This document shows, piece by piece, positions 1-17,041 of a stretch of DNA of 64,000 bases. A program made the position numbers and the translations under genes. Numbering within the stretch: the first letter of the stretch is position 1; every line of letters begins with the position of its first letter. Under the pieces are notes generated by a model, which did not search any database, had not been told where the DNA came from, and saw only the letters and a list, made by a program, of their open reading frames with translations. The DNA is from Candidatus Omnitrophota bacterium (lineage in GTDB: Bacteria; Omnitrophota; Gorgyraeia; Gygaellales; Profunditerraquicolaceae), in contig JAOAET010000051.1 in NCBI GenBank assembly GCA_026416665.1, positions 75,800 through 139,799 on the forward strand. The letters run 5' to 3'.

Positions 1-983
1 GCTTTTACAGTCAAAGGATTAGCATTAACAATTAAGTTAAAATCACCTATTGCGCCATTAAAATTGGTTGGTTTTCCTTCCTCAGGCAAGTCAAGAATAA
101 CTAAAGGTATTGCCGTTGATTCTAGTTCCATCGGAAATAACTCATATCTACCAAAAAAGTCATCAAAGATATCATCCTTGAAAAATCCACTAAAGAAATC
201 GTCGTCAAAAACTGAAGGTATCCGTTGTCTATGCTTACGCACCACCAGATTACAAGATAACTTCGCTGGACCTAAAGTAAACTCACCTGGTTTTATAGCA
301 AAAAGATTGGTAGAGAATTCTACTACATCATAAATTATGCCTGCCAATTGCTCACGGTATTGCCGTGGCTGTCCAAAGGCTTCAATAGAAAAGGACTTTG
401 ACTCTAGAACAGGCAGATGTATATCCCGCACAGCTAAGTTGTTGACATAAAGCTTTACACTTATGGGGACTAACTCATTGATAAAAAGTTTTCTTTTAGG
501 AATTGATAGAACTATAAATATTCTATCTTTTAAATCTTCTCTAGAGATTCCCAAAGAGGCATCGCTATCTGTTTGAGGTCTATTCGGTTGCAACTGACCT
601 GTGGGGGCAGAAATTACTTCTATCTCAATTGGTTTTGATTGATAAGTCTTTTGATTAACTTTTACTGAAAAAGGACCTAAAGTAAACTTACCTGTTTTAA
701 GTGGCAGTAAAGTGAAAACATGTGTGATAGAAGAATTTACTACCCCGTTGACTATTGAAATACTGCTTGAGGGGCCTAGATAATTTACTTTAAAATCATT
801 AATTTTAGGCAAATCCGGCGGTGGCAGATTATTTGTTCCATGGAAGGTAAAGTATAATTGTACTGGTTCTCCCACAACTACCTGACTTCGCTCTACACTA
901 ACTTCAAACTGAATATCTGCTGCTGTGGTTATAGCAGCTGTTATTCCTATTATTATTAAAGTTATAATACTTATTCTTTTCAT
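1..983 (-). CDS. BatD-like (oxygen-tolerance operon) protein, 3'-truncated by window edge; ATG at 983
   Basis: Own translation of the reverse strand from 983 runs open to position 1. N-terminal signal/TM (MKRISIITLIIIGITAAITTAA). Two repeated beta-rich BatD-type domains (VSVERSQVVVGEPVQLYFTF..., ...FAIKPGEFTLGPAKL). Sits last in a moxR-DUF58-batA-batB-batC gene order. The listed + ORF 64-333 is antisense to it. Confidence 0.55.
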   Translation of the reverse strand, partial: MKRISIITLIIIGITAAITTAADIQFEVSVERSQVVVGEPVQLYFTFHGTNNLPPPDLPKINDFKVNYLGPSSSISIVNGVVNSSITHVFTLLPLKTGKFTLGPFSVKVNQKTYQSKPIEIEVISAPTGQLQPNRPQTDSDASLGISREDLKDRIFIVLSIPKRKLFINELVPISVKLYVNNLAVRDIHLPVLESKSFSIEAFGQPRQYREQLAGIIYDVVEFSTNLFAIKPGEFTLGPAKLSCNLVVRKHRQRIPSVFDDDFFSGFFKDDIFDDFFGRYELFPMELESTAIPLVILDLPEEGKPTNFNGAIGDFNLIVNANPLTVK

Positions 984-1008
984 CGTAAAAATTTAAAAGG
1001 TATCTTTC

Positions 1009-2019
1009 CTACCAATCTTTAATCACTACACCATCATAGCGCAATGAATCTTTCTTGTCTATAGAATCTAAACTTTGGCTATTTCCATATCGGTCAAGTA
1101 AAGCCTGGGCCTGTTCAGTGGTCAATTCCTCTATAGAACCATTCTGCCCTTGTTGGCCCTCTTGTTCACTTCTTGATTTATTCTCTCTTTCTCTCTGTTG
1201 GTCAGTAGCTTGCTGTGGTTGGGTTATTTGATTTTGGTCTTGGTCTTCTTGGCTGCCTTGTTCTGTTTTCTCTTTTTGCTCTTCCTGCTCTTCTTGTTCA
1301 AAATTTTTCTGTTGCTCAGCTTGTTCCTTTTGGCTATCTTGATTTGTCTCTTTTTGGTCTGAATCTGAAGGTTTCTGTTGCCCTTGCTGCTGTTGTTTCT
1401 GATTATCTTTGTCAGTAGAGCTTGTTCCAGATTCATCTTGCTTCTGCTGAGAATCTTTCTTAAGAGGGCATTGTTGGTCTTGGTTTTCTTGCTTCTGTTG
1501 TTTTAATTTATCAAGTAAAATCTTAAGCCTACGTTCAACAAATTCATGATTAAATCTTGCATCTTTATTCTTTTGGTCAAGTTCAATGGCTCGCTTGTAA
1601 TAATCTAAAGCAGAGCGATAATGAGCAATAGCTGCCTCTAAATCTATCTGTTCCTTGCGCCTGCCTATCTGGTAATGGGTATTCCCTATATTATACAATG
1701 CATCTGCTTCTATTATTTTATCTTGAGTAGCTAAGGATTTTGTAAAGTGCTCCAAGGCCTTTTCATAATCACCCTTTTTATAATAACTTGTTCCCATATT
1801 AAAAGCCAATGTCTCCGATTCAGGCAAACCTAAGCTTGCCTGATGATACTGCTCAATTGCCTGGTCAAACTTTCCTTGGTGATAGAGTTGTTTTGCCTTT
1901 TTCATTGCCTCTTTGGCTACAGAGGAAGTTGCAGCAAAACAGGAATCTATATTTTGTGATAATAAGTAGATAAAGAAAATAACCGTTATATAATTTTTAA
2001 TTTTTTTTGCCCTGCTCAT
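1009..2019 (-). CDS. BatC-like TPR-repeat protein with ~150-aa Q/E/K/D-rich low-complexity C-terminal tail
   Basis: N-terminal signal/TM, TPR-like repeats (AFNMGTSYYKKGDYEKALEHF, ALYNIGNTHYQIG), then QQKQENQDQQ...EQEEQEEQKEK low-complexity tail. Position after two vWA genes matches BatC. 4-nt overlap with the upstream gene. Confidence 0.7.
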   Translation of the reverse strand: MSRAKKIKNYITVIFFIYLLSQNIDSCFAATSSVAKEAMKKAKQLYHQGKFDQAIEQYHQASLGLPESETLAFNMGTSYYKKGDYEKALEHFTKSLATQDKIIEADALYNIGNTHYQIGRRKEQIDLEAAIAHYRSALDYYKRAIELDQKNKDARFNHEFVERRLKILLDKLKQQKQENQDQQCPLKKDSQQKQDESGTSSTDKDNQKQQQQGQQKPSDSDQKETNQDSQKEQAEQQKNFEQEEQEEQKEKTEQGSQEDQDQNQITQPQQATDQQRERENKSRSEQEGQQGQNGSIEELTTEQAQALLDRYGNSQSLDSIDKKDSLRYDGVVIKDW

Positions 2020-3017
2020 ACTTTTCTTCTACTGGTTACTAACCATTCTAAAGCTAACAAAATCCAAGCACAAAGTAAGGGAATTTGAAAACGTTCTTCG
2101 TATTGTTTGGCCATTTTTGTCTCTAACTGTCTTTTCTCAAGTTGAAAGATACGCTGACTATACAATAAATCCAGTCCAAATTCTTTTGACTGGGCACGCA
2201 CATAGCTACCGCCGGTCAATAAAGCAATCTTCTGTAAAGTCTCTTCATCAAGTCGTGTCTTTACTACCGCACCTGTTCTGTCTTTTAAAAACACTTGATT
2301 ACCTTTTTCATCAACTAAAGGAATTAGCTCACCTTCTGGTGTGCCAATTCCAATACAAAAAATCTTAATTCCTTCTTTTTTTGCTAATTCAGCTGCTTTC
2401 ATTGTATCACCTTCGTGTGCTTCGCCATCAGTAATCAAAATAAGTACCTTGTACTTTTTTACTCCACTTTGAAAACTTTCAATAGCCCGATAAATAGCTG
2501 AAGCAAGACTAGTTCCGCCACGAGGGATGGTATTTACATTGAGGTCTCTTACTGATAGCAAAAAACCATTATAATCAACAGTTAGTGGACACTGCACAAA
2601 AGCAGTACCACTAAAGGCAATTAGACCTATTCTATCACCAGATAATTGCTTGACAAAATCTTCTAAGGCAAGTTTTGTGCGCTCTAGCCGGCTTGGCTTA
2701 ATATCTTCCGCTAACATGCTCTTTGACACATCTACTGCTACCATAATGTCTAACCCTTTGCGCTTGACCTCTTGCCAACGAAAACCCCACTGCGGTCGCA
2801 TAAGTGCAACTACTAAAAAAACAAGACTACTTACTAAAATTATCTGTTTTACATAAAGTAACTTTGGATTGAACGTTTTAGTCAATATTGATATTAATTG
2901 CTTATCTGCAAACTTCTCCAATGCCTTTTTCCGTCTTTGGTTAGCCCATAGATAAAATAAAACCAGACCTAAAATAAGCCATATTAAATTTACGTATCCA
3001 AAAGCTGCCCAGCGCAT
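2016..3017 (-). CDS. BatB-like von Willebrand factor A (vWA) domain membrane protein
   Basis: Two N-terminal TM segments. MIDAS motif DVSKSM (MVAVDVSKSMLAEDI), vWA fold signatures (ILITDGEAHEG). Confidence 0.8.
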   Translation of the reverse strand: MRWAAFGYVNLIWLILGLVLFYLWANQRRKKALEKFADKQLISILTKTFNPKLLYVKQIILVSSLVFLVVALMRPQWGFRWQEVKRKGLDIMVAVDVSKSMLAEDIKPSRLERTKLALEDFVKQLSGDRIGLIAFSGTAFVQCPLTVDYNGFLLSVRDLNVNTIPRGGTSLASAIYRAIESFQSGVKKYKVLILITDGEAHEGDTMKAAELAKKEGIKIFCIGIGTPEGELIPLVDEKGNQVFLKDRTGAVVKTRLDEETLQKIALLTGGSYVRAQSKEFGLDLLYSQRIFQLEKRQLETKMAKQYEERFQIPLLCAWILLALEWLVTSRRKV

Positions 3018-3019
3018 CC

Positions 3020-4015
3020 TTAAGGTAACCTCCTTAAAAAGGTATTCGCCAGTCCTATTTCTGATAAAAGAAAAACCATACTAACTAAAACAAACCCAGA
3101 GAACTTCTCTTCATAATCAACAAAACCTCTTTCCTCAAAACGGCTCTTTTCCATACGGTCAATAGCTGAATAAATCTCTTTTAGTGAGTGTGTGTCTGTA
3201 GCACGGAAATATAAACCGCCGGTTTTAGAAGCAATCTCCTTCAAAGTATCCTCATCAACATCTATCTTCATTGGTTGGTAAATAGTATTGCCAAAAAAAT
3301 CCTTAACTGGATACGGTGCAAGTCCTTTTGTGCCTGCCCCTATGGTATATACTTTCACCTTTAAAGCCTTGGCTGCCTCTGCAGCAAGACGTGGAGAGAT
3401 ATTTCCCGCATTGTTCATTCCGTCTGTCAAAAGGATAACTACTTTGCTTTTTGCCTGCGAATTTTCCAAACGTTTTAAAGAAACCATAATTCCTGAGCCA
3501 ATAGCTGTTCCATCTTCAATCATTCCTATACTTAACCTCTTAAGATTCTCAAGTAACCAAGCATGGTCTAATGTCAAAGGACTAACTGTATAGGCACGCC
3601 CAGCAAAAGCTACAATGCCCATCCGGTCATATCTTCTTCCTAAAATAAACTCTTCAACTACGTTTTTTACTACCTCTAAACGATTTGCCCTTTTACCATT
3701 TAGAGTAAAATCCTCTGCTAACATACTACCGGAGACATCTATTGCTAAAATAATATCTACTCCTTCAGATTCAATACGGCTGTGTTGAATTGGTAGGCGG
3801 AATCTACATAAAGCAAGTGCTAGTAAAATAAGACTAACTAACCTAAAGACCCAGAGGAATCTTAAAAAAATAATTTTTGGTGTCGCCTTAAGTGGCTTAA
3901 ATATTTTTAGCGAGGAAAACCTTATACTGCCGTTATAAAAGAAGCGATTTCCCACATAGATTATTAAGATAGCCAAAGGGATAAGTAAAAGAAAAATTTT
4001 GTCTTGAATAATCAT
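3020..4015 (-). CDS. BatA-like vWA domain membrane protein
   Basis: N-terminal TM segments. MIDAS motif DVSGSM (ILAIDVSGSMLAEDF), LLTDGMNNAG. Confidence 0.8.
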   Translation of the reverse strand: MIIQDKIFLLLIPLAILIIYVGNRFFYNGSIRFSSLKIFKPLKATPKIIFLRFLWVFRLVSLILLALALCRFRLPIQHSRIESEGVDIILAIDVSGSMLAEDFTLNGKRANRLEVVKNVVEEFILGRRYDRMGIVAFAGRAYTVSPLTLDHAWLLENLKRLSIGMIEDGTAIGSGIMVSLKRLENSQAKSKVVILLTDGMNNAGNISPRLAAEAAKALKVKVYTIGAGTKGLAPYPVKDFFGNTIYQPMKIDVDEDTLKEIASKTGGLYFRATDTHSLKEIYSAIDRMEKSRFEERGFVDYEEKFSGFVLVSMVFLLSEIGLANTFLRRLP

Positions 4016-4971
4016 TTTTGTTCAATATTCTTTGCACCTGTTTCTTCAATAAGCATACGCGCAGAATCTAAAGAGCTATTTATTTCTTCTTTATCTGGTT
4101 GGTATTTGGCAAATTTTACTAAATCGCAATGTCCTAAAAAATTACCAAGGAGCTGTTTATGTTTATCTTCTAAACTTGTCTGATCACTGTTTAGCTTGTG
4201 TAGAAACTCCTCCGTAGTCATCTCAGGTGCCCGTATCCCAAAACGATTCTCAAGATATCTGCGGACTATATCAGAAAGTTCGAAATAAAAAAGCTTGTAA
4301 AGCCCTTTCTCAACATACTGCTTATTCTGTAATTCTTCTAAAGCCCTTAAGGCAATTACATCCGCAGGAATAACCGGAGGTTTCTTCTGTTTTTTCTTTC
4401 CCTTTAAAAAATATAGCAGAAAACATACAGCTAAAATAAGTAAAACCACACCCAATATTAGTATCGGCGATTTTTCTGTTATATCCTTCGGACCACGAAT
4501 ATCACGCAACGTCTCTTTTTGTAACGAATTTTCTAAGACACTTTTTACAGTAATAGTTACGTTGTTTGCTTTCAAAGTCTGCCAATCAGATTGCGCCTCT
4601 CTACGGAAACGGATACTTGGGGAATTGATTGTAAGGTTGCCACTTACGTAAGTATCCAAAATATACCATTGCCTCCAATAACTTCTACCTAAAAAAGTCT
4701 TCTTATTAAGGCCAAAATCTTTTATCGCTGATACTCCCAATGCTTCGGCAGTTAGATACTCTATTTCTACCTGCATATCTTTAGGCCCTTCTACTTGAAC
4801 TTCGTATCTAAAATTGTCTCCGATGTTTAAAACATTTTTATTTACTATGGCTTTGACAATAATCTGATTTTGTTTTGCCTTGTTTTTCCAAAGAAAATAG
4901 ATAAAGACAGTCCCACCGACTAGCATTAAAATAAAAAAAACTAAAAATAATCTTTTTTTTCCGATATACAT
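4012..4971 (-). CDS. Two-TM membrane protein: BatD-like beta domain plus DUF4381-like C-terminal region
   Basis: N-terminal TM, beta-rich segment resembling the BatD repeat style, second TM (ILILGVVLLILAVCFLLYFL), then a C-terminal tail (PADVIALRALEEL...YLENRFGIRAPEMTTEEF) of the type found in DUF4381 proteins of Bat operons. ATGA overlap with batA. Confidence 0.45.
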   Translation of the reverse strand: MYIGKKRLFLVFFILMLVGGTVFIYFLWKNKAKQNQIIVKAIVNKNVLNIGDNFRYEVQVEGPKDMQVEIEYLTAEALGVSAIKDFGLNKKTFLGRSYWRQWYILDTYVSGNLTINSPSIRFRREAQSDWQTLKANNVTITVKSVLENSLQKETLRDIRGPKDITEKSPILILGVVLLILAVCFLLYFLKGKKKQKKPPVIPADVIALRALEELQNKQYVEKGLYKLFYFELSDIVRRYLENRFGIRAPEMTTEEFLHKLNSDQTSLEDKHKQLLGNFLGHCDLVKFAKYQPDKEEINSSLDSARMLIEETGAKNIEQK

Positions 4972-4981
4972 CTTTTTTACT

Positions 4982-6148
4982 TTAGAAAAATTCTACATCT
5001 TCTTCTTTTACTGTCTGGCGAAAAATTTCTTGTATAATCTCTTGCTGTTTCATATGCCGATAGTCTGCTTCTACCTGTGGCTTAATTTCTTCAAAAGTTG
5101 GCTGTAGACGATCTTTCTTATCTACAATTAGAAAAAGATAAAATTTATCTTTTATCTTAACCGCATCACTAAGCCAATCTTTATCATGTTGAAAAAACGA
5201 ATTTATTACTTGTTGTGCCTGACCAATATCAGGAATCTGCTGTTCATTCTCGTAAACAGTTACTTCTTTTGCCTGTGGCTCTTTTTCTTTTAACTTTTTT
5301 GCTATCTCTTCTTTTTTATCCAAATTATCAAAATCAAGATAACGAATTTTCACCTGCGCAGGTTGACTGTATCGGTCTTTATTTGCCTGATAATATAACT
5401 TAATGTCTGTTTCACTTAAATTAGACATTTTCTCTTTAATCCTGTCAGATAGAAAACGTTCTACTATCATTTGTTTTTTTATATGCTCAAAAGTTTTACG
5501 CAATTGCCAGTCGGTATCTAAACCTAACCTGATTGCCTTCTGGAAAATAATCTCTTGGGCAACATAATCTTTGATAAACTCTTTTCTCTTTTGTGGGTCA
5601 TCATATTCTTTCCGAGCCCATTCTGGAATAAATGAGAGAGCTTCTTCTATCTGGTCTCTGGTAATAAACTTTTTGTTTATGCGTGCAACAATATCTTTTT
5701 CTTCCTTAGGTTTTGCCCCTACTGCTGTGCGTGCCTCTAACTCATATTTAGCCTGAGAACTTAAACCAATATTTTCTAATGCTGTCACAATTTTTTGCCC
5801 CATCTCATTAGCAAATTGTGCATTGGGAAGCAATAACTCTGCCTTGTAAAAACAACGCAGAGCTTCTTCATACTGTTGATTCTCTAAATAGATATTTCCC
5901 AGCTTATACAGAATCTGTGCCTGTTGTTCTTTGGTAAGCGTTGCTTTATCCAGGTATTCTTGAAATGCCTCTGCTGCCTGTTTCTTTAGTCCCTTGGTTA
6001 AAAGTCTATTTGCAAACTCCAACTGAATACTTAAATCTTCAATGGAAGAAGTTTTTATGGCGGCTTTCAGTTGATACAACTGTATAGATACTAAGGCTAA
6101 AATAGCTATTAAAAATATTAAAACAATTACATTTAAAAACTTCTGCAT
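4982..6148 (-). CDS. Membrane-anchored TPR protein with SurA-N/PpiD-like C-terminal region
   Basis: N-terminal TM (VIVLIFLIAILALVSIQLY), TPR-like repeats (LYKLGNIYLENQQYEEALRCFYKA), and a C-terminal chaperone-like region. Abuts the DUF58 stop codon. Confidence 0.4.
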   Translation of the reverse strand: MQKFLNVIVLIFLIAILALVSIQLYQLKAAIKTSSIEDLSIQLEFANRLLTKGLKKQAAEAFQEYLDKATLTKEQQAQILYKLGNIYLENQQYEEALRCFYKAELLLPNAQFANEMGQKIVTALENIGLSSQAKYELEARTAVGAKPKEEKDIVARINKKFITRDQIEEALSFIPEWARKEYDDPQKRKEFIKDYVAQEIIFQKAIRLGLDTDWQLRKTFEHIKKQMIVERFLSDRIKEKMSNLSETDIKLYYQANKDRYSQPAQVKIRYLDFDNLDKKEEIAKKLKEKEPQAKEVTVYENEQQIPDIGQAQQVINSFFQHDKDWLSDAVKIKDKFYLFLIVDKKDRLQPTFEEIKPQVEADYRHMKQQEIIQEIFRQTVKEEDVEFF

Positions 6149-7030
6149 CTAACGCAACCTCCTTTCCCGCATTCGGAAAAATTGGAAGAGCATTCGGTTA
6201 TATGGTAAATCAGAACGCAGATTAATGCTATCTATACCAATGCGTTCGAAGGTCTTCTTAAGCCCTTCTTGAACTAATCGTGCCTGTTCTGCAAATTCGC
6301 TACGGATTTGCCTACTTGAGGTATCTATACAAGCAGTCACATCAGTTTCCGCATCTTCAAATTGCACTATCCCTATGTCAGGAATACTAATTTCTCTGGG
6401 GTCAGTAAGGGTAATTGCCACCACATCATGACGCTTATTAGCCACAGCTAATTGTTTCTCAAAATCTCTTTCGCTTAAAAAATCCGAAATGACGAAAACT
6501 ACGCTTTTACGTTTACAAACCTTTCCAAGATATTCTAAAGCCATTGCGATATCTGTTTTTTTACTCTGACCAGTTAAATAAAGTGCATCACGGATAATCC
6601 TCAAGATGTGTCGTAAACCTTTCTTCGGCGGAATAAATTCCTCTACCCTATCAGAAAAAGCAAGGAAACCTACTTTGTCATTATTTCTTATAGCTGCTAA
6701 AGCTAATAAGGCACATATATGTGCAGCTAAAGTGCGCTTTAATTTCTGGCTGGTACCAAAGTAAATTGAGCCAGATATATCCATGACCAATAAGACAGTC
6801 AGTTCTCTTTCCTCAACAAACTTTTTGACATAAGGATGCCCCAATCTTGCTGTTACATTCCAATCAATAGTGCGCACCTCGTCCCCTGGTTGATAAGGAC
6901 GCACTTCTTCAAATTCTATTCCTCGCCCCTTAAAGACACTTTGATATTGCCCACAGAACACGTCATTAACCATTCGGGAAGTAGTAATTTCAATACGACG
7001 AATCTGTTGTAAAACTTCTTTAGGAATCAT
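6149..7030 (-). CDS. DUF58 family protein (MoxR partner, vWA-like)
   Basis: Position immediately downstream of moxR. Sequence style (DWNVTARLGHPYVKKFVEERELTVLLVMDISGS) typical of DUF58. Confidence 0.75.
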   Translation of the reverse strand: MIPKEVLQQIRRIEITTSRMVNDVFCGQYQSVFKGRGIEFEEVRPYQPGDEVRTIDWNVTARLGHPYVKKFVEERELTVLLVMDISGSIYFGTSQKLKRTLAAHICALLALAAIRNNDKVGFLAFSDRVEEFIPPKKGLRHILRIIRDALYLTGQSKKTDIAMALEYLGKVCKRKSVVFVISDFLSERDFEKQLAVANKRHDVVAITLTDPREISIPDIGIVQFEDAETDVTACIDTSSRQIRSEFAEQARLVQEGLKKTFERIGIDSINLRSDLPYNRMLFQFFRMRERRLR

Positions 7031-7040
7031 AGATATTTTG

Positions 7041-8036
7041 TTAAGGAACTTCTATTTCTTCAAATACGCGTTTTATTATATCTTCAGATGTCTTATTTTC
7101 TGCCTCTGCCTCAAAACTTACAATTATCCTATGGCGCAATACATCAGGACCCACGGACTTAACATCTTGAGGTGTAACATAGCCTCTCTGCTGAAGAAAT
7201 GCATAGGCTTTACTGGCAACCGTTAGATAAATGGTAGCGCGAGGTGATGCTCCGTATTGAATAAGGTCTACTAAATCTTTTAAATTGTAATCACTGGGTT
7301 TACGAGTAGCAAAAACAATATCCAGAATATATTTTTCAATTTTTTCATCCATATAAATTTCATTCACTACTTGCCTTGCTCGTTTAATATCCTTGGGACC
7401 AATTACTGCTGCAACTTCAATTTTTTTGTCAGTTACAGCATATTCCTTTAGAATTTTCTGTTCTTCTTCCCGAGAAGGATAGGTTAGGTTTATCTTAAGC
7501 ATAAAGCGGTCAACTTGTGCCTCTGGTAATGGATAGGTCCCTTCTTGTTCAATAGGGTTTTGGGTAGCCATAACCAAAAAAGGCTCTTCCAGCTTAAAGG
7601 TCTGCTCACCAATAGTAACTTGGCGTTCCTGCATTGCCTCTAATAAAGCACTCTGCACCTTTGCTGGCGCACGGTTAATTTCATCAGCTAAGATAATATT
7701 GGCAAAGATAGGACCCTTTTTTGTAGTAAAGGTGCCGTCTTTGGGATTGTAGATTAGTGTTCCAATAAGGTCAGCAGGAAGTAAATCCGGGGTAAATTGA
7801 ATCCTTTGGAATTTTGCCTGAATTGCTTCAGCTAAAGTTTTTACAGAAAGTGTCTTGGCAAGACCAGGGACACCTTCTACCAGAACATGCCCATTTGCTA
7901 AAAGTCCTATCAAAAGTCTATCAATAAGATAACGTTGTCCGATAATAACTTTTTCTATCTGCTGTCTTAAAACACTAATAAAAGCACTTTCTTGCTTGAC
8001 TTTCTCATTAATCGCTGTTAGACCCGTATAACTCAT
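7041..8036 (-). CDS. moxR: MoxR-family AAA+ ATPase
   Basis: Walker A GVPGLAKT, Walker B ILADEINRA, MoxR length (~330 aa) and conserved C-terminal region. Confidence 0.9.
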   Translation of the reverse strand: MSYTGLTAINEKVKQESAFISVLRQQIEKVIIGQRYLIDRLLIGLLANGHVLVEGVPGLAKTLSVKTLAEAIQAKFQRIQFTPDLLPADLIGTLIYNPKDGTFTTKKGPIFANIILADEINRAPAKVQSALLEAMQERQVTIGEQTFKLEEPFLVMATQNPIEQEGTYPLPEAQVDRFMLKINLTYPSREEEQKILKEYAVTDKKIEVAAVIGPKDIKRARQVVNEIYMDEKIEKYILDIVFATRKPSDYNLKDLVDLIQYGASPRATIYLTVASKAYAFLQQRGYVTPQDVKSVGPDVLRHRIIVSFEAEAENKTSEDIIKRVFEEIEVP

Positions 8037-8245
8037 AGACTCCTCCTATTTGTTTCTTGTTTTGTTCCTAATGACTCATTGCAGTTTACACAACGATAAT
8101 CATAAAGTTCACCATCAGGTAGAACTAACAACAATATCTCCCGAACTGGCATTGACCTTTTACAGTTTGGACAATACAGGTAAGTAGCGCTCATGCGCTC
8201 AAATTGTCTTTGTTGATTGTCATTTTCTTCTGGAATAAACCACAT
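8033..8245 (-). CDS. Small zinc-ribbon protein (CxxC...CxxC)
   Basis: 70 aa, CPNC-x23-CVNC. ATG verified. ATGA overlap with the moxR start suggests co-translation. Confidence 0.45.
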   Translation of the reverse strand: MWFIPEENDNQQRQFERMSATYLYCPNCKRSMPVREILLLVLPDGELYDYRCVNCNESLGTKQETNRRSL

Positions 8246-8265
8246 GAGATTATGGTAAGGAATAT

Positions 8266-8457
8266 TTATGAGGCCAAATTTGTTCTGTCCATTTCATAAA
8301 GTGCATTACCACACCAACGGCATTTTTTTTCATCCTCACGGTAACCATCTACCATAAGACACTTACGACAACGGTAATTACCACCTGATGATTTAAATGC
8401 TCCGTACTCTTTCTGCAGTGCTAGGATATCAACATTTTTTAGAACATTCTCATGCAT
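8266..8457 (-). CDS. Small zinc-ribbon protein (CxxC...CxxC)
   Basis: 63 aa, CRKC-x15-CRWC. Strong SD (GGAGGTG) 8 nt upstream of the ATG. Confidence 0.55.
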   Translation of the reverse strand: MHENVLKNVDILALQKEYGAFKSSGGNYRCRKCLMVDGYREDEKKCRWCGNALYEMDRTNLAS

Positions 8458-8490
8458 ATACCTGACACCTCCAGAAAGTAAAAGGCAGAT

Positions 8491-8532
8491 AAAAGGGTTG
8501 CCCCTGTTTAAACAGAGGCAACCCTTTTCTTT
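8491..8532 (-). terminator. Intrinsic terminator-like hairpin downstream of groEL
   Basis: GGGTTGCCCCTG/CAGAGGCAACCC 12-bp stem (1 mismatch), 6-nt loop TTTAAA, flanked by A-run and T-run, 15 nt after the groEL stop. Confidence 0.55.
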
Positions 8533-8546
8533 ATTGTGTTATAGGA

Positions 8547-10172
<1,626 letters not shown>

Positions 10173-10192
10173 TCACCTCTCCTTTCTTTAAA

Positions 10193-10483
10193 TTAATCAT
10201 TAATAATTGCTAAAACATCTTCTTCCCTGATAATAAGGTGCTCTTCACCATCAATCTTTATCTCTGTTCCTGCATATTTTCCATAGAGAATGCGATCCCC
10301 TGGTTTGACCTCTAAAGGCTGAATCTTACCATCTTCAAGCACCTTACCTTTACCTACAGCAATAACTTTCCCCTCTTGGGGTTTTTCCTTTGCTGTATCA
10401 GGTAAAATAATACCACCTTTGGTTCTTTCTTCTGCCTCCAAAGGTTTTACCAGGATCCTGTCTGCCAACGGTGTAATCTTCAT
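10193..10483 (-). CDS. groS: Co-chaperonin GroES (Hsp10); start moved to internal ATG
   Basis: [29 protein letters not shown] is the canonical GroES N-terminus. SD GGAGCAGG precedes ATG at 10483. The track's longer 131-aa ORF adds a non-conserved 35-aa extension. Confidence 0.9.
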
Positions 10484-10648
10484 ACCATCCTGCTCCTTTC
10501 TGTTAATAGGTTGTTGAACTTTACTATTATAACCTAATCTTTTTTGTGGTAAAATTGTTTTTTTACCACCAGAGATTTTTTTAGACAAAATTTTTTATTG
10601 CTTTCACCTCCTTCCAGATTAAACCATTTATCTTACTTAAATTTATTC

Positions 10649-11125
10649 TCAATTAATCTTGATTGTTTTAGTTGAAGGATAAGAACTCTTTTGTTTAGGG
10701 AGGTTTAACTCTAAAACCCCATTTTTATATGTGGCTTTTGCTTTTTTAACATCAACTTCCGAAGGAAGAGTTACTGTCCGTATAAAACTTCCATAAAATC
10801 TTTCTTGTCTAAGACAAGATTTTTCTTTAGCGCTTTTTGAATATTTCTTTTCTCCTTCAATAGTCAAAACTCTTCCTTCAAGTTTTAATTTTATATCTTT
10901 CTTATCCAAACCTGGCAAATCTGCTTTTACTACAATGTTATCTTTTGATTCGTGAATATCTAACTCTGGGGTCCAGAAAGCAAACTCCTTCTTAGAGCTA
11001 CGTTTCTCTAAATATTTTTCAAAGGTAGAATCAAATAATGTATTTAAATTCTTTTGGAGTTTTTCTATTTCACTAAAAGGATCCCATATTTTTGGTGAAT
11101 GGGGTTGCCATGGAATTAACTGCAT
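10649..11125 (-). CDS. Hsp20/alpha-crystallin family small heat-shock protein
   Basis: ACD-domain pattern (WTPELDIHESKDNIVVKADLPGL...ERFYGSFIRTVTLP...YKNGVLELNLPK). SD AAGGAGG precedes ATG at 11125. Confidence 0.85.
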   Translation of the reverse strand: MQLIPWQPHSPKIWDPFSEIEKLQKNLNTLFDSTFEKYLEKRSSKKEFAFWTPELDIHESKDNIVVKADLPGLDKKDIKLKLEGRVLTIEGEKKYSKSAKEKSCLRQERFYGSFIRTVTLPSEVDVKKAKATYKNGVLELNLPKQKSSYPSTKTIKIN

Positions 11126-11140
11126 GGAACACCTCCTTGA

Positions 11141-11170
11141 CTGTAGCGGCACACAATTGTGCCGCTACAG
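11141..11170 (-). promoter_or_regulatory. Perfect 13-bp inverted repeat / stem-loop (CTGTAGCGGCACA-CAAT-TGTGCCGCTACAG) between two sHSP genes
   Basis: Seen directly. It abuts the SD of the downstream sHSP gene and has no U-tract after it. Confidence 0.5.
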
Positions 11171-11197
11171 CATAAAGAAAATATCCGAAGTTCTCTA

Positions 11198-11566
11198 TTA
11201 ACTTTTTATTTCAATTTTTTTAGGAATACTTGAAGCTACTTTCTGTAAAGTAACCTTCAGTATCCCATTTTCATATTGGGCTTCTATTTTTTCTTTATCA
11301 ATCATATTACCCAAGATAAATTTGCGCATATACTCGTAGGGGCAGCGCTCACGATGAATAACCGTGTAACCTTTGGGAGGTTCACAACTTTTAGGTTTCC
11401 CTTTGATAATTAACTCATCATCCTGCAACTCAATGGAAATATCTTCTTTATTAAGTCCCACCATTTCTGCCTCTAAAATCACCTCTTTATCAGTCTGACG
11501 CACATTAACTAGAGGCTGGACAATTCTTTCACTTACCTGTTCATCTTTGTGTTTTAAGGCAGACAT
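11198..11566 (-). CDS. Hsp20-like (alpha-crystallin domain) small heat-shock protein, divergent member
   Basis: Short ACD-like architecture (TDKEVILEAEMVGLNKEDISIEL...YENGILKVTLQK). Confidence 0.65.
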   Translation of the reverse strand: MSALKHKDEQVSERIVQPLVNVRQTDKEVILEAEMVGLNKEDISIELQDDELIIKGKPKSCEPPKGYTVIHRERCPYEYMRKFILGNMIDKEKIEAQYENGILKVTLQKVASSIPKKIEIKS

Positions 11567-11610
11567 TATCTATCACCTCCTTTATATAGGAAGTTTTCGG
11601 ATAATAAGGA

Positions 11611-12081
11611 TTACTTTATTTCTAATTTTATTTGTTTAGGTTTTGCCTTTTCACTCTTAGGCAAAACAACCTCAAGAACGCCATTTTTGTAAGTAGCTTC
11701 TACCTTATCCGCCTGAACTTCTACAGGAAGGCGAATTGCCCTTTGAAAAGCACCATAGAATCTCTCAGTGCGGATATAGTCTTTTTCTTTTATATCTTTA
11801 TCCTGTTTTTTCTCTCCCTTAATAAACAGAGTATCACCTTGAACAGTCACCTCAATATCATCCTTGGTAAGTCCAGGTATATCGGCTTTTACCAGAAGAT
11901 TATCCTTAGAATCGTAGATATCTATTGCAGGGATCCAGGCACCATCCAGAAGTCCGACATGACGGCTGGTTTCCTGTGCAAGTGTTAGATTAAACAAACG
12001 ATTCATCTCTCTTTGGATCCTTTCTAAATCAGCAAAAGGATCCCACCAATCTTGTCTCGGTCTCCAGGTAATCAGCGCCAT
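11611..12081 (-). CDS. Hsp20/alpha-crystallin family small heat-shock protein
   Basis: WIPAIDIYDSKDNLLVKADIPGL...ERFYGAFQRAIRLP...YKNGVLEVVLPK. SD GGAGGG precedes the ATG. Confidence 0.85.
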   Translation of the reverse strand: MALITWRPRQDWWDPFADLERIQREMNRLFNLTLAQETSRHVGLLDGAWIPAIDIYDSKDNLLVKADIPGLTKDDIEVTVQGDTLFIKGEKKQDKDIKEKDYIRTERFYGAFQRAIRLPVEVQADKVEATYKNGVLEVVLPKSEKAKPKQIKLEIK

Positions 12082-12102
12082 AATCCATCCCTCCTTTCTT
12101 TT

Positions 12103-12129
12103 TTAGCACTCGTTCCACACAAGTGCTAA
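12103..12129 (-). promoter_or_regulatory. CIRCE operator (HrcA-type heat-shock element)
   Basis: TTAGCACTC-N9-AAGTGCTAA matches consensus TTAGCACTC-N9-GAGTGCTAA with one mismatch. Lies 22 bp upstream of the first sHSP start. Confidence 0.8.
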
Positions 12130-12147
12130 TAATTGGTTAAAAATTTT

Positions 12148-12438
12148 TTAAGTACTCTTGTATATCTTTTCCTCCATCTCTAGAACGTATTTAAGCCCAC
12201 TTAACTTAATCTTCTTTTCCTTCATAATATACCAGATGTGGCTGAGTTTGTTAAGTTCATTATGTGAATAAAGCCTTGCCTTACCTTTTTTGCGTGGTGG
12301 AGAAATTATAGACGCCTTATCAAGCTGCTTAAGCACCCATACTGGGATACCCAACAGCCTACTTACCACGCCACTAGTGTAGACGGGTTCATTATCATTA
12401 ATCTGAACCTTATCTCCATAATGGACTGCTTTTTTCAT
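12148..12438 (-). CDS. MerR-family HTH transcriptional regulator, HspR-like
   Basis: N-terminal HTH (YTSGVVSRLLGIPVWVLKQLDKASIISPPRKKGKARLYSHNEL) of MerR/HspR type. Located directly upstream of the heat-shock cluster. Confidence 0.6.
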   Translation of the reverse strand: MKKAVHYGDKVQINDNEPVYTSGVVSRLLGIPVWVLKQLDKASIISPPRKKGKARLYSHNELNKLSHIWYIMKEKKIKLSGLKYVLEMEEKIYKST

Positions 12439-12447
12439 TCCACTTTT

Positions 12448-12476
12448 TTTATATCACGATTTTCGAAATTTGTCAA
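12448..12476 (-). promoter_or_regulatory. Sigma70-like promoter for the HspR-like gene (-35 TTGACA, 17-bp spacer, -10 TATAAA) with a TTTCGAAA palindrome in the spacer
   Basis: Read on the minus strand: TTGACA-aatttcgaaaatcgtga-TATAAA. The -10 ends ~10 nt before the ATG, implying a leaderless or very short-leader mRNA. Confidence 0.45.
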
Positions 12477-12762
12477 GTATTTTTTTAAAAATTTTTTTCT
12501 ATTTTCGAAATATTTTTTTCGATTTTGGCACTATCTATTGCTCCAAAAACTTTTAAATTTTAAATTAATTTTAATTGCACTTATCTATTATCTATCTTTA
12601 TTGATTCTCAAAAAAACACTTCTTCAAAGATAATCAAACCTTTCTATAATTTGATATCAAAATAAGAGCTGGCTATGTTTCTAAACTTAGAAGCAAAGTT
12701 ATCTATTTTTTATCAATATTTAGTAAAAGGTGTCTTAAATCTTTTATTTATTTTTATTGTAG

Positions 12763-12771
12763 TGGTATAAT
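12763..12771 (+). promoter_or_regulatory. Extended -10 promoter element (TGGTATAAT) for the plus-strand island
   Basis: TGnTATAAT ~40 nt upstream of ATG 12813. SD AAGGAAG precedes the ATG. Confidence 0.4.
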
Positions 12772-12812
12772 AGCACATTGTGAAAAATAAATTATAACAA
12801 AATAAAGGAAGT

Positions 12813-13511
12813 ATGCAAGTGAATTATTTTCGGTATCTATTTGGAATAAATGCCTCAGAGATAAAGAAAACCTGTATAATTGTTCCACTGCTGCCTAAAA
12901 ATTTAGATAGTTGTTTTGAAAAAATATACAACTACAGAGGTTTACTTTACTCAGTAATTAATACACAAAACTGTTCCATTATCCGTACAGGAGTGGGAGC
13001 AGGGCTCTGTGGCGATGCGATTTTATACCTAAAAGAGACACAAGCAAGTAATCTTATTTTATTTGGTTCCTGTGGTTTGGTTCGACCTAAAAATAATTTA
13101 AAGATAGGAAGCCTTGTTGCGCCAGAGAAAAGCTTTAACTTAGAAAGTTTTACCAATCTTTTGAGAAAAAATATTAGCTGGCAAAACTATTACCCTAATA
13201 AGATTCTGTTAAAAAAAATATTTACGGCAATAGAGGGAATATGTAAAGTTACTTCCGCAACCATTGGCTCAATCTATTTAGAATCACAATATCTAGAATT
13301 GTTTAAAAAGAAAAAAGTCGATATTGTGGAGATGGAAGCCTCTGCTTTTTTCAGTGCAGCAAAGAAAATAAAAAGAAAAGCAGCAGCTTTATTTTATATA
13401 ACAGATATAGTGCCAGTAAAACCTTTTTGTCAACCACTAAACACGCAAGAGAAAATAACTTTAAACAAAATAATTACAAATACTTTATTAACACTATGTC
13501 ATCTTTCATAA
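12813..13511 (+). CDS. PNP/UDP-phosphorylase superfamily nucleosidase (MTA/SAH- or 5'-deoxyadenosine-nucleosidase / futalosine-hydrolase-like)
   Basis: GVGAGLCGDAILYL...LILFGSCGLV resembles the MTAN glycine-rich/SAGG region. VDIVEMEASAFFSAA resembles the catalytic ExE[SA]AA motif. Confidence 0.55.
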   Translation: MQVNYFRYLFGINASEIKKTCIIVPLLPKNLDSCFEKIYNYRGLLYSVINTQNCSIIRTGVGAGLCGDAILYLKETQASNLILFGSCGLVRPKNNLKIGSLVAPEKSFNLESFTNLLRKNISWQNYYPNKILLKKIFTAIEGICKVTSATIGSIYLESQYLELFKKKKVDIVEMEASAFFSAAKKIKRKAAALFYITDIVPVKPFCQPLNTQEKITLNKIITNTLLTLCHLS

Positions 13512-14848
13512 CACAATATCAGCATCTTAAACTGATAAGCTCTTTCGTAAAAAAGAAATTTAGACACTTCGGTGTAAACAAAAAACAAGAGATTATCCGG
13601 CTTGTTTATGAAATATGTAAAAGAGAAAACCTAAAACCTCAGACAGTCCTAAAAGATTTACCAGTGGGAGAATTCCACGCTTTAAAAGATTATTTAGTTT
13701 GTCGTCGTTTCCCCATTGCCTATGCACACAATCAAACAAGAACACTACATTTACCTAAATTAAAATTAGATAAAAGTAAAATCTTCGCGGCATCATCTAA
13801 AGATTTTTATCCACGAAAAATTATTGTGGAAAAAAGAGTCCGCGATTCAGTACTTACTAAAAAATTTACTTCTTATTTTCCAGATGCTAAATTAAAAGAA
13901 ATAGACACTTTAAAATCTTTTATAAAAAAATACCGTTGTCTTAAGGCCTTTGACTATAATCACCGAACAGATACTGTAATTATCATACATCAACCAGCGG
14001 ATTTTTTTAAACGCTGTCCCTGTACCAAATATGCGGTGGGATGTAACTATAATATTTTTAATCTCAGCTTTGGCTGCATATTTGAGTGCACATACTGCTT
14101 TCTCCAGGAATACACCAATAGCCCAGGAATACTTTTCCCCGCTAATCTTGATTCATTTTTTGAGGCATTTAAAAATTATGTGGGTAATTTTAAAAGATTA
14201 GGCAGTGGGGAATTCTCCGACTCTCTTATGTTAGATAACGTTACTGAATACTCTCAAGAAATTATTGCCTTTTTTAAAAAATATCCAAGTGTTCTTTTTG
14301 AATTTAAAACTAAAAGCTGCCAAATAAACAATCTTCTGTCTGCGCGTCATAAAGGAAATATTGTTGTTGGCTGGTCATTTAACCCAGAATGCATTATTAA
14401 GGAAAATGAGTTTTATACTGCTAGTCTCCAACAAAGACTCATAGCCGCCCAAAAATGTGTCCAAGCGGATTACAAAATAGCCTGCCATTTTGACCCAATC
14501 ATTTATTTTCAAGATTGGCGAAAAGAATATGAAAACCTTATTGAAAAAATTTTCAATTACTTAAAGCCCAAAGATATCGCTTGGATAAGCTTGGGCACTT
14601 TACGTTTCAATCCTGCATTAAAAACTATAATTGAAACACGTTTTCCCCTTAACAGGATCTTAGATGCTGAATTAGTTTATGGATACGACAGAAAATTACG
14701 CTATCCCGATGTCCTGCGCAGAGATATTTACCAGTATATGATTAGACTACTCAAAAAACACAACAAAAACATACCTGTTTATTTATGTATGGAAAATGTA
14801 AATATGTGGCGGCTAGTTGGATTGTCGTTGCCTCAACAAATTATTTAA
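13496..14848 (+). CDS. Radical-SAM protein of the spore-photoproduct-lyase (SPL/COG1533) family with a novel N-terminal extension
   Basis: CxxxCxxC embedded as GCIFECTYCFLQEY (SPL-type C..C.YC.LQ). Track start 13427 is TTG. ATG at 13496 overlaps the upstream stop by 16 nt, consistent with translational coupling. About 190 aa precede the cluster motif without recognisable homology. Confidence 0.5.
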   Translation: MSSFITQYQHLKLISSFVKKKFRHFGVNKKQEIIRLVYEICKRENLKPQTVLKDLPVGEFHALKDYLVCRRFPIAYAHNQTRTLHLPKLKLDKSKIFAASSKDFYPRKIIVEKRVRDSVLTKKFTSYFPDAKLKEIDTLKSFIKKYRCLKAFDYNHRTDTVIIIHQPADFFKRCPCTKYAVGCNYNIFNLSFGCIFECTYCFLQEYTNSPGILFPANLDSFFEAFKNYVGNFKRLGSGEFSDSLMLDNVTEYSQEIIAFFKKYPSVLFEFKTKSCQINNLLSARHKGNIVVGWSFNPECIIKENEFYTASLQQRLIAAQKCVQADYKIACHFDPIIYFQDWRKEYENLIEKIFNYLKPKDIAWISLGTLRFNPALKTIIETRFPLNRILDAELVYGYDRKLRYPDVLRRDIYQYMIRLLKKHNKNIPVYLCMENVNMWRLVGLSLPQQII

Positions 14849-15007: not shown

Positions 15008-17041
15008 TTATTTCTCTGTCTTTTCAATTTCAGAAAGAGGAAGTAAACTGTCTTCAATTTGTCTTTCTAGGTATTTCTCTACAAAACCAGGTATGGAATC
15101 ACGAAGGCGTTGTTTAAAATCCGATTCAAGCCATTGAAAATTGATATTATTGAGTTCTCCTGAAAGTTTAAAATCGAAGGTAAGCATAGAAATTTCCTTG
15201 CCTACTAATCTTAGAAGTGGCTTAAATTTATTTGAATTCTGTAATAAATCTTTATGAATGCTTAAAGAAAGCTTACTAGTAACTAAATTATTATTACCAA
15301 GCCAGAAATCACCTGTTAAAATAATGTTTTTTGACCTTACGTTTAACTTATGTAGCCCAGCACCTTGTGAATTAACCTTGAAAAAGGAATGTGCGCGTTC
15401 AAAATTTACCTGAGTAAGCGGTAATGAAAAAGATGAACTCAACCATTTCAAGAACTCAAAATCTTTAGCATACCCATTACGGATAATAAATGATCCCTTT
15501 ATCGCTTGCTCAGGGACATTTCTAAATTCTAATTGACCAGAGATTTTACCATATACCTTGGCAAAATGGATAACTAAACGTTCCAATTTATTGCTGGAAA
15601 CATCTTTATATCTAATTGTTGTATTAACTTCGGGTATCGCTTTAGTTATATCTATCCAATTACGACCGTAAAGTATTCCATCATATAATCGGCTGTGGAA
15701 GTACGCAATCTTCGCTTTAAGTGGTGCACAGTTAATTTTTATCTTTAACTGTGATAAAGGAAGGAAATATTCGTTAGTTTCGGTGAGTATATTAAATTGA
15801 GCCTCACTAATATCTGCTGTAAGTAAAGGAAAAGCCTGTCCATTTATCTTTACATTATTAAGTTTTATTTTCATATTCTCAAGAGGAGTAGTCTTAACAT
15901 TTTTCTGTAAAAATAAAAATTCAACCAGAATATCTCCCGAAAAAATTTTTTCTCCGTAATGGCCCTGTATAAGTGTTTCTAAACGTTTTACATTTAATTG
16001 TTGTTGAGCGGTATCCTTAAGTCGTCTAAACTGGGCAGACAAATTAACATTGAAATCTATGGCCTTCTCAGAAGAAGATACTATAGAGCCATTAAATTTT
16101 ACAGGATTATTGTTAATAGAAAAACTAAGATTATCTATATCTATTTTAGGAAAATCTTTAATATTAATCACACTATCTATATCTAAGATAAAAAGATCAA
16201 CAACTGGTAATAAGCCACCTTTAGGCGGCGGCGGGAAACCTCTTAGAAAATTTTCAATACGTTCCTTAATACTCAAATATGGCGCAATGTAATTGCCCTC
16301 TTTAAATAAGGTATTAATAAAACAAAACCCTTTTGTTCGAATGATTCCTCTGGTTATATTACCCCATAGTTTTGTATAAAGATTTTCTCGAATGATTTCA
16401 ATATTATCAAAAACAAAATCATTATCACTAAATCTTCCGTAAGCAATAAATTCCCACGGTAAAAAAACTCTCTGCTGAGAATTAATGTAAGAAACCGCCC
16501 CGTAACTATAAAAATTATCATTTTTCAACTTCAGGTAAAAACGTATTTCAAAATTATCCGAAGAGACTTGTTTTAATTGAAATTTTTTTACAATAAACCG
16601 TAAATCTTTTTTGGGTAAATCAAGAAGTAACTCAATGACCTTTTTACCATAAAGTGCCAGGAAATTCCTGAATACTTCTTCTTCAGTATTTACCTCATAA
16701 AAGCATATATCGGTTATTTCAATTTGTCCATAACGGATAAACTTAATTATGGAAAATTTTACCAAAACGAGAGGAACGGAAAAGATAGTTCTATTCACCG
16801 CCTCTTTGTTTTCCACTAAAGAGATGTTTTTAAGAAATATAAAATTAGGGGGTAGGTAAAGGACACGCTCAACAAAGAGCTCTTGGGGTAAATAGGCTCT
16901 ACCAATCGTGCGTAAGGTATCTTTAAGAAAACCAAGTGTAATATTTACTATAATTAACGCGGAAAGTAGAACTAATAAAATAACACCAGTAAAAAATATA
17001 CGTTTTTTTAATTTAGTAGTTGATACGCGCAAAGAGTTCAC
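15008..17041 (-). CDS. Large membrane-anchored hypothetical protein (possibly AsmA-like)
   Basis: 677 aa, single N-terminal TM (IFFTGVILLVLLSALIIVNITLGF), long beta-rich N/K/F/I-rich body, GTG-type start. A/T-rich coding. Confidence 0.45.
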   Translation of the reverse strand: MNSLRVSTTKLKKRIFFTGVILLVLLSALIIVNITLGFLKDTLRTIGRAYLPQELFVERVLYLPPNFIFLKNISLVENKEAVNRTIFSVPLVLVKFSIIKFIRYGQIEITDICFYEVNTEEEVFRNFLALYGKKVIELLLDLPKKDLRFIVKKFQLKQVSSDNFEIRFYLKLKNDNFYSYGAVSYINSQQRVFLPWEFIAYGRFSDNDFVFDNIEIIRENLYTKLWGNITRGIIRTKGFCFINTLFKEGNYIAPYLSIKERIENFLRGFPPPPKGGLLPVVDLFILDIDSVINIKDFPKIDIDNLSFSINNNPVKFNGSIVSSSEKAIDFNVNLSAQFRRLKDTAQQQLNVKRLETLIQGHYGEKIFSGDILVEFLFLQKNVKTTPLENMKIKLNNVKINGQAFPLLTADISEAQFNILTETNEYFLPLSQLKIKINCAPLKAKIAYFHSRLYDGILYGRNWIDITKAIPEVNTTIRYKDVSSNKLERLVIHFAKVYGKISGQLEFRNVPEQAIKGSFIIRNGYAKDFEFLKWLSSSFSLPLTQVNFERAHSFFKVNSQGAGLHKLNVRSKNIILTGDFWLGNNNLVTSKLSLSIHKDLLQNSNKFKPLLRLVGKEISMLTFDFKLSGELNNINFQWLESDFKQRLRDSIPGFVEKYLERQIEDSLLPLSEIEKTEK

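Follow-up and report, generated by a model that had tools for sequence, protein, structure and literature searches.

A Bat Operon with an Accessory Chaperone Gene in an Omnitrophota Bacterium

Gene Content of the Bat Locus

We have analysed a stretch of 64,000 nucleotides from a Candidatus Omnitrophota bacterium (GenBank JAOAET010000051.1, positions 75,800 to 139,799), hereafter called the window; all coordinates count from its first letter. Positions 1-8036 constitute the Bat operon of this uncultured bacterium, which probably extends upstream to position 8457. The proteins of 4012-4971 and 4982-6148 are identical to NCBI entries, N2606_06140 amongst them, from a Candidatus Omnitrophica metagenome-assembled genome (contig of 239 kb). 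The locus is a known system with a lineage-specific accessory chaperone, undescribed in the literature that we searched. On the minus strand, the region holds seven complete open reading frames (ORFs) and one frame (1-983) that remains open at the window edge, the same eight ORFs as reported in an earlier, sequence-only reading of this DNA. The call of a MoxR-DUF58-VWA operon of the Bat type made in that reading was borne out by profile matches to AAA_3, DUF58, tetratricopeptide repeats (TPR) and BatD, and to two von Willebrand factor A (VWA) domains, each with a metal-ion-dependent adhesion site (MIDAS). The genes are listed from moxR to batD, with the supporting Pfam matches (E-values) in brackets; TM stands for transmembrane.

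7041-8036, minus strand: MoxR (MRP-type) AAA+ ATPase, cytoplasmic (AAA_3 1e-66, AAA_lid_2 1e-21)
6149-7030, minus strand: DUF58 protein, VWA-like adaptor with MIDAS, cytoplasmic (DUF58 3e-80, VWA_2 6e-16)
4982-6148, minus strand: probable accessory chaperone with a TM anchor, a TPR-like section, a SurA-N/PEB4-type module and a parvulin insert (Rotamase_2 1e-10)
4012-4971, minus strand: two-TM BatD-like/DUF4381-like protein, third gene of standard Bat operons (sub-cutoff Pfam matches, family profile, structure model)
3020-4015, minus strand: BatA, three TM segments and a VWA domain with MIDAS (VWA 4e-24)
2016-3017, minus strand: BatB, three TM segments and a VWA domain with MIDAS (VWA 1e-20)
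1009-2019, minus strand: BatC, exported TPR protein (TPR_1 3.5e-16)
1-983, minus strand: BatD, N-terminal 327 residues, the gene continuing past the window edge (BatD, PF13584, 6.9e-26)

The motifs expected of the system, Walker A and B in MoxR and the MIDAS motif DxSxS in DUF58, BatA and BatB, are intact. MoxR has its Walker A (GVPGLAKT) at residue 55 and its Walker B (IILADE) at residue 114, the DUF58 protein has DxSxS at residue 84, and neither protein has a TM segment. The TM segments of BatA are found at residues 1-19, 48-66 and 305-323, with DVSGS at residue 93; those of BatB at residues 5-23, 53-71 and 310-328, with DVSKS at residue 96. The best NCBIfam models are VWA_BatA_Lepto for BatA (1e-56, below its species-level cutoff) and VWA_BatB_Lepto for BatB (2.5e-40, sub-cutoff); BatC matches TPR_BatC_Lepto (9e-16, sub-cutoff as well). 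BatD starts with a signal-like segment (residues 4-22). In relatives, full-length BatD measures 603-631 amino acids (aa), and 614-631 aa in the related Omnitrophota contigs L001-L004; in L001-L003, a gene for BatE (TPR plus SH3_3) follows after batD. In the window genome, batE is expected past position 1.

The low-complexity tail of BatC is an observation apart: 39 Q, 19 E and 15 K occur amongst the 130 residues 171-300, and with this long Q/E/K-rich tail the protein reaches 336 aa, versus 257-291 aa in relatives.

The genes had been described as abutting or overlapping by 4 nt throughout. The tight packing is real, but ATGA overlaps do not occur everywhere: from moxR to batD, the successive junctions measure 10, 0, 10, -4, 2, -4 and 25 nt. 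Two ATGA overlaps thus exist between moxR and batD, and a third where a small upstream ORF meets moxR (see below).

The Accessory Chaperone

The ORF at 4982-6148 codes for a protein of 388 aa with an N-terminal TM anchor, probably a membrane-anchored periplasmic chaperone of the SurA/PEB4 type. It matches Rotamase_2 (1e-10) with 42.9 bits against a cutoff of 27 and, slightly under the cutoff, TPR_1 (6e-6). The AlphaFold model (pLDDT 83.8) consists of a TM helix (residues 2-29), six TPR-like helices in three pairs (39-141) and helices 164-260 and 356-382 that flank a beta-alpha insert (265-345); there is a long C-terminal helix. The model has the NC-type layout of the chaperones SurA, PEB4 and PrsA, where a parvulin insert is placed between N- and C-terminal helices. 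The best match is PEB4 (3rfw), both by profile (HMM E 2e-14 over residues 154-384) and by structure (Foldseek E 1.6e-8, TM-score 0.69 when target-normalised, rmsd 4.1 A), followed by HP0175, PrsA and Cj1289.

The sequence-only reading had correctly seen the TPR section and the SurA-N-like module, here of PEB4 type, but overlooked the parvulin-type domain (Rotamase_2). It had also called the protein PpiD-like, which is apt for the architecture but not for sequence and fold, which are closest to PEB4, HP0175 and PrsA. Orthology with PpiD was rejected, since the hhalign probability of 87.8% concerns only 55 columns, at the parvulin end, of the 623-aa PpiD; likewise, orthology of the TPR domain with YfgM was rejected (probability 0.9%). 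More generally, the domain calls for 4012-4971, 4982-6148 and 1-983, singled out beforehand as those on which the earlier description should stand or fall, hold on profile-HMM annotation, in the case of 4012-4971 at family level and, for its DUF4381 part, weakly.

The parvulin insert of the window protein is reduced and probably inactive, as judged from the alignments. Where the PEB4 motifs AKHILV and GYHVIL have a histidine each, these being the conserved active-site histidines of parvulins, the window protein has tyrosines (Y270 and Y337). A parvulin segment of 18 residues extant in the Poribacteria homologues is deleted in the Omnitrophota members, window protein included. Moreover, the insert is wholly absent from two members of the family, one of 306 aa (L088, 1496-2416) and one of 326 aa (L089, 38-1018). 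The gene for the former is flanked by those for DUF58 and the two-TM protein within a complete Bat operon; the latter occurs in a short contig, where the downstream genes are unannotated but of matching size. Because the histidines are replaced, the segment is deleted and parvulin-less members exist, the window protein is more likely a holdase than an isomerase. The Poribacteria homologues have, in addition, a long basic N-terminus ahead of the TM segment.

Distribution of the Chaperone Gene

We mapped the window proteins onto 85 fetched loci, 75 of which could be scored for the chaperone gene: it is present in 24 and absent from 51, while the remaining 10 loci are unscorable. The chaperone-positive loci include 16 of the 34 scorable loci labelled as Omnitrophota, two of the four from Poribacteria and a few from vaguely labelled metagenome-assembled genomes. 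No chaperone gene was found at the scorable Bat loci of Nitrospirota, Planctomycetota and Binatia. Its absence from the Bat loci of Bacteroides, Vibrio, Catenovulum, Pantoea and Cetobacterium agrees with the earlier claim that a gene inserted between DUF58 and the VWA genes sets the locus apart. The chaperone family as such comprises 480 clusters at 50% identity in an exhaustive profile search (E <= 1e-30).

In all 24 chaperone-positive loci, the gene stands between those for DUF58 and the two-TM protein, and the order DUF58, chaperone, two-TM protein was also found in seven out of seven protein look-ups with enough flanking DNA. The gene order in L001-L004 is as in the window. The core genes (MoxR, DUF58, two-TM protein, BatA, BatB, BatC, BatD) follow one another in the same order in Omnitrophota, Nitrospirota, Planctomycetota, Binatia, Poribacteria and Margulisiibacteriota.

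One Poribacteria locus, L069, is unusual in two respects: a sugar-nucleotidyltransferase gene (8503-9864; NTP_transferase 4e-49) is situated between the chaperone and two-TM protein genes, and the operon is broken after the latter.

Apart from two loci of Poribacteria, the chaperone-positive loci fall into a few groups of Omnitrophota in a neighbour-joining tree of the two-TM protein; one chaperone-negative locus (L007) is nested amongst them. The window sequence is on a long branch in this tree, which is too crude for gain and loss counts. In the literature searched, no paper ties DUF58 or MoxR to a peptidyl-prolyl isomerase (PPIase), and DUF4381 is mentioned in two papers only, both unrelated.

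The Third Bat Protein

On its own, the two-TM protein (4012-4971) has matches below the cutoffs only: Pfam returned DUF4381 (7e-5; 23.6 bits against a cutoff of 27.2) and BatD (4e-3; 18.1 bits against a cutoff of 24.1), and NCBIfam the LB_053 family (3e-7, sub-cutoff). A word-indexed search yielded 742 matches for its family; amongst 40 members, BatD was matched by 35 (best 1.7e-7) and DUF4381 (PF14316) by 17 (best 2e-6). With hhalign, the beta domain of the window protein aligns with the first domain of true BatD over 118 columns (probability 95.1%, E 3.2e-8); by this profile comparison, the N-terminal domain belongs with the BatD domain (PF13584). The C-terminal domain reached 1% against the Vibrio version of true DUF4381 and 11% against a three-sequence alignment. 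Operon position and the layout of TM segment plus helices are alike in the two kinds of protein, and "DUF4381-like" thus denotes a resemblance in position and topology, weakly backed by sequence.

The AlphaFold model (pLDDT 84.5) has TM segments at residues 5-34 and 168-189, a beta-sandwich at 38-143 and helices at 203-318. The N-terminal helix is like a cleavable signal peptide in most relatives. The beta domain is predicted to be periplasmic and the helical domain cytoplasmic; the latter includes a nearly invariant acidic motif, RAPEMTTEEF.

We searched for a specific match amongst solved structures and rejected the candidates, Foldseek giving generic matches of the Ig-like-plus-TM kind only, with TM-scores of at most 0.27 (query-normalised) and 0.56 (target-normalised), amongst them TRAP-beta and PmoB/AmoB. 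The top PDB matches were TRAP-beta, of the eukaryotic Sec61-associated TRAP complex (E ~1e-5, target TM-score ~0.5), and PmoB/AmoB, a likeness that is probably generic Ig-plus-TM similarity. The TRAP-beta match is nevertheless curious, as the neighbouring chaperone gene resembles the translocon-associated YfgM-PpiD.

The two-TM BatD-like protein is the normal third Bat gene, customarily labelled "hypothetical", "BatD family" or "DUF4381". Scanning one genome per species, we found the family in at least 550 species of many phyla, a lower bound. In Bacteroides finegoldii, the third Bat protein (362 aa, annotated as "BatD family protein") has a BatD-like N-terminal domain as well; its C-terminal domain is 35% identical to that of the window protein over 122 residues (E 7e-17), and the two proteins have the motifs EMT(T/S)xE and DLVKFAK in common. 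The second BatD-type domain with a DUF4381-like anchor, presented in the sequence-only reading as a distinguishing mark of the locus, is therefore a real protein but not a distinctive one: the B. finegoldii protein at the same position and the species count rule out the fusion as a novelty. Compared with the Bat loci of Bacteroides and others, only one of the two departures proposed is left, the chaperone, the third gene being standard.

Comparison with Known Systems

In gene order as well as in domain make-up, all core genes of the window are orthologues of those in the classical Bacteroides locus. The BatI operon of B. finegoldii (NZ_OY725888.1, L086) encodes MoxR, DUF58, the two-domain BatD-like protein of 362 aa, BatA, BatB, BatC, BatD and BatE (TPR), in the same order as in the window, and its DUF58 protein is 47.6% identical to that of the window. 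No gene occurs there between those for DUF58 and the third protein, whereas the window has the 388-aa TM-TPR-PEB4-like chaperone at that place; the long Q/E-rich tail of BatC is also a feature of the window as compared to BatI.

The operons of Gammaproteobacteria (Vibrio, Catenovulum, Pantoea) are organised as MoxR-DUF58-DUF4381-VWA-VWA(TPR)-BatD, with the same succession of ATPase, adaptor, membrane protein, VWA and BatD. Their third protein, however, is a true DUF4381 protein of 145-212 aa (Pfam 2.5e-33 for that of Vibrio) that lacks a periplasmic beta domain of BatD type, and hhalign shows no detectable relation between it and the C-terminal domain of the window protein. BatB and BatC are fused in these operons, and there is no chaperone gene.

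The closest known relatives of the chaperone, PEB4 (Cj0596) and Cj1289 of Campylobacter, HP0175 of Helicobacter and PrsA of Firmicutes, are extracytoplasmic SurA-like proteins with an inserted parvulin domain, and match residues ~150-385 of the window protein. By comparison with the PEB4 group, the latter adds an N-terminal TM anchor and TPRs, has a shortened parvulin insert and is encoded within a Bat operon. The parts of the Escherichia coli YfgM-PpiD pair, found at SecYEG, namely, an N-in TM anchor, periplasmic TPRs, an NC-type domain and a parvulin domain, are united in one polypeptide in the window (PMC9643414), which we regard as an analogy of architecture, not as family membership.

The pairing of a MoxR-class AAA+ hexamer with a VWA/MIDAS adaptor, as in MoxR-DUF58 here, is known from NorQ-NorD, CbbQ-CbbO and RavA-ViaA. 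In these pairs, the adaptor brings the hexamer to a specific target complex (PMC9976466, PMC13036017, PMC4660213, PMC3893208). The window system differs from pairs of the NorQ-NorD type in that the adaptor is a DUF58 protein, the target is presumably embedded in the membrane, and two more VWA proteins of the locus are membrane proteins.

The Upstream Region

Two small zinc-ribbon ORFs and a hairpin, the ORFs overlooked in the earlier description, separate moxR from a heat-shock gene cluster.

8033-8245, minus strand: 70-aa zinc-ribbon-like protein with two CxxC pairs, its stop overlapping the moxR start by ATGA
8266-8457, minus strand: 63-aa zinc-ribbon-like protein, again with two pairs of CxxC, immediately past the groEL terminator
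8491-8524, minus strand: terminator-like hairpin after groEL, its 12-bp stem including one G-U pair, with a TTTAAA loop and TTTT behind the stem (found by sequence inspection)

The two small ORFs have weak Pfam matches only. By tblastn, relatives of the 8033-8245 ORF occur between groEL and moxR in L001 and L003, and those of the 8266-8457 ORF directly after groEL in L001, L003 and L009. The Bat transcription unit, with the hairpin as its likely upstream boundary, may have the former ORF as its first or second gene. The hairpin is absent from the output of a terminator consensus scan; the promoter and terminator consensus scans over positions 1-13000 gave counts no higher than the shuffled expectation, and we claim no promoter.

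Upstream of the hairpin, groEL, groES and three HSP20 genes are located at 8547-12081 on the minus strand. An inverted repeat of the type called controlling inverted repeat of chaperone expression (CIRCE), TTAGCACTC-N9-AAGTGCTAA, with one mismatch, precedes the HSP20 genes at 12103-12129 (chance expectation: 0.02 matches). It is the single site in the whole window, and there is no second one before moxR. The synteny of heat-shock and Bat genes is observed in L001, L003 and L009 only.

The groES ORF (10193-10588, minus strand) gives 131 aa from a TTG start, with the Cpn10 domain at residues 37-129; the true start is probably downstream of the listed TTG. In L001, a sister genome, moxR is immediately preceded by a gene (6733-8010; 425 aa) in which a trypsin-like protease and an HSP20 domain are fused, and which itself comes after an acyltransferase gene; neither gene exists in the window.

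Other Genes in the Window

The acetyl-CoA synthase noted previously was confirmed: the gene for its beta subunit is at 17685-19871. The adjoining ORF 15008-17041 (677 aa) and the ORF 51655-53388 (577 aa), both on the minus strand, have no Pfam match at E <= 1e-5. The ORF 13427-14848 on the plus strand (473 aa) encodes a domain of the spore-photoproduct-lyase family (radical SAM; 3e-30) and occurs in a stretch of low GC content (~29-31% around 12500-14000).

Interpretation

We favour, with moderate confidence, the interpretation that the locus is a Bat operon with an added periplasmic holdase, which would act as an envelope stress or proteostasis device rather than as a specific oxygen-detoxifying one. 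What has been published on Bat phenotypes speaks for general stress rather more than for oxygen chemistry: the bat operon of Riemerella anatipestifer is induced by heat, as well as by oxidative stress (PMC11834572), Leptospira bat mutants lack an oxidative phenotype, and the Leptospira bat genes are clustered with htpG (PMC3557215). No redox domain is present in the window proteins.

By analogy with other MoxR-VWA pairs, the cytoplasmic MoxR hexamer would work with DUF58 as its VWA/MIDAS adaptor. The contact of MoxR-DUF58 with the membrane would most likely be the cytoplasmic helical domain of the two-TM protein, whose RAPEMTTEEF motif could be a MIDAS ligand. The two-TM protein is the sole component with a predicted folded domain on each side of the membrane and, therefore, a natural candidate for coupling the ATPase to the periplasm. 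The periplasmic part would consist of its beta domain, the VWA domains of BatA and BatB, and BatC, BatD and BatE; in the BatA-like protein BB0173 of Borrelia, the VWA domain is on the periplasmic side (PMC5700661). The added chaperone would be a periplasmic holdase, anchored N-in/C-out like PpiD, YfgM and PrsA (for YfgM and PpiD, see PMC9643414), and may either aid the folding and assembly of the periplasmic Bat parts or hand unfolded envelope clients to the complex.

Several points weigh against this interpretation. The chaperone gene is missing from two thirds of the related operons and, therefore, unneeded for the core function. The lone CIRCE is upstream of the HSP20 genes, the terminator-like hairpin divides groEL from the Bat genes, and the groESL synteny is confined to the closest relatives of the window (three of the 85 loci). 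The tie between the C-terminal domain of the two-TM protein and true DUF4381 is weak. For the proteins of the window itself, counting positive charges gives no clear inside, and the membrane orientation of the Bat parts is taken by analogy; the loss of PPIase activity is deduced from replaced and missing residues. To our knowledge, no Bat complex has been reconstituted or solved, and the case for the Bat mechanism is computational throughout.

Alternatively, the extra gene could encode a general chaperone of the translocon that unites the functions of YfgM and PpiD in one chain, is merely co-located with the Bat genes and serves all secreted proteins instead of the Bat machine. Its architecture indeed mirrors the E. 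coli YfgM-PpiD heterodimer, where the TPR domain of YfgM binds the NC domain of PpiD and the parvulin domain of PpiD is likewise of doubtful catalytic importance (PMC9643414). However, homology with YfgM is not detectable (0.9%), and that with PpiD extends over 55 columns only (87.8%). Its place between the DUF58 and two-TM protein genes is strictly conserved in at least two phyla and in all contexts that we examined, and a housekeeping chaperone is unlikely to be absent from the locus in two thirds of the sister lineages, yet fixed in position where present. Moreover, L003 has a separate canonical parvulin protein nearby. We consider this explanation unlikely.

It is similarly improbable that the locus is devoted to aerotolerance or to the defence against oxidative stress, supplying or managing periplasmic reducing power in a strict anaerobe, a role originally put forward for Bacteroides fragilis. 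The batD mutant of that species has reduced aerotolerance, as summarised in a later paper (PMC3557215), loss of batA makes R. anatipestifer more sensitive to oxidative stress (PMC11834572), and the acetyl-CoA synthase of the present organism suggests that it is probably an anaerobe. Nevertheless, Pfam and NCBIfam reveal neither a redox domain nor a thioredoxin fold, a cytochrome or a metal-redox motif in the eight proteins, and the added gene is for a folding chaperone, not for a redox protein. Leptospira bat mutants have no oxidative-stress phenotype (PMC3557215), and the same operon is common in Vibrio and Pantoea, which are aerobic or facultative. The oxygen-tolerance role advanced in the sequence-only reading is not supported: it is inherited from the family name, and is unsettled even for the characterised Bat loci (PMC3557215).

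Less likely still is an envelope-spanning structural or adhesive scaffold, in which the Bat proteins would tether the inner to the outer membrane, or the cell to a host, and the chaperone would be an assembly factor, a role identical to the one it has in the envelope-stress interpretation. BatD is made of repeated Ig-like domains, the VWA protein BB0172 of Borrelia is reported to be surface-exposed and integrin-binding, and many Omnitrophota have been proposed to be host-dependent nanobacteria (PMC10066038). Against such a scaffold, Pfam detects neither adhesin-type repeats nor an outer-membrane anchor in the window proteins, the system is widespread in free-living bacteria too, and a scaffold would have no obvious reason for a cytoplasmic ATPase.

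The reading as an anti-phage or conflict system of the MoxR-VWA kind can practically be set aside: such modules do occur in conflict systems (see PMC7159879) and MoxR has a secondary match to the bpMoxR model (7e-17), but AAA_3 (1e-66) is by far the better model, Pfam finds no beta-propeller or effector domain, the conservation is vertical with housekeeping-like synteny across phyla, and the defence reading was rejected on the PADLOC result, with nothing for nine of the 10 proteins and a marginal DolB match for MoxR (E 7e-4, 16.9 bits).

Returning to the envelope-stress interpretation, a bolder version of it, to which we would give only slight credence, is that Bat is an ATP-powered system for trans-membrane quality control of periplasmic proteins, for which the chaperone would provide an operon-encoded client-binding module in Omnitrophota and Poribacteria. 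The periplasm is devoid of ATP; the work of MoxR-DUF58 would pass via the two-TM protein to a scaffold of BatA/BatB VWA domains, BatC/BatE TPRs and BatD beta-sandwiches. If this were true, the inconsistent "aerotolerance" phenotypes would be secondary effects of envelope proteostasis.

Bat operons exist in many phyla, pathogens such as Bacteroides, Leptospira, Borrelia, Francisella and Riemerella included, and have been known since 1999. The gene of a probable holdase, recurring at one fixed position in hundreds of Bat operons, and the heat-shock neighbours preceded by a CIRCE in this clade are independent genomic hints that the system may be concerned with the handling of envelope proteins that are unfolded or being assembled, and not with oxygen as such.

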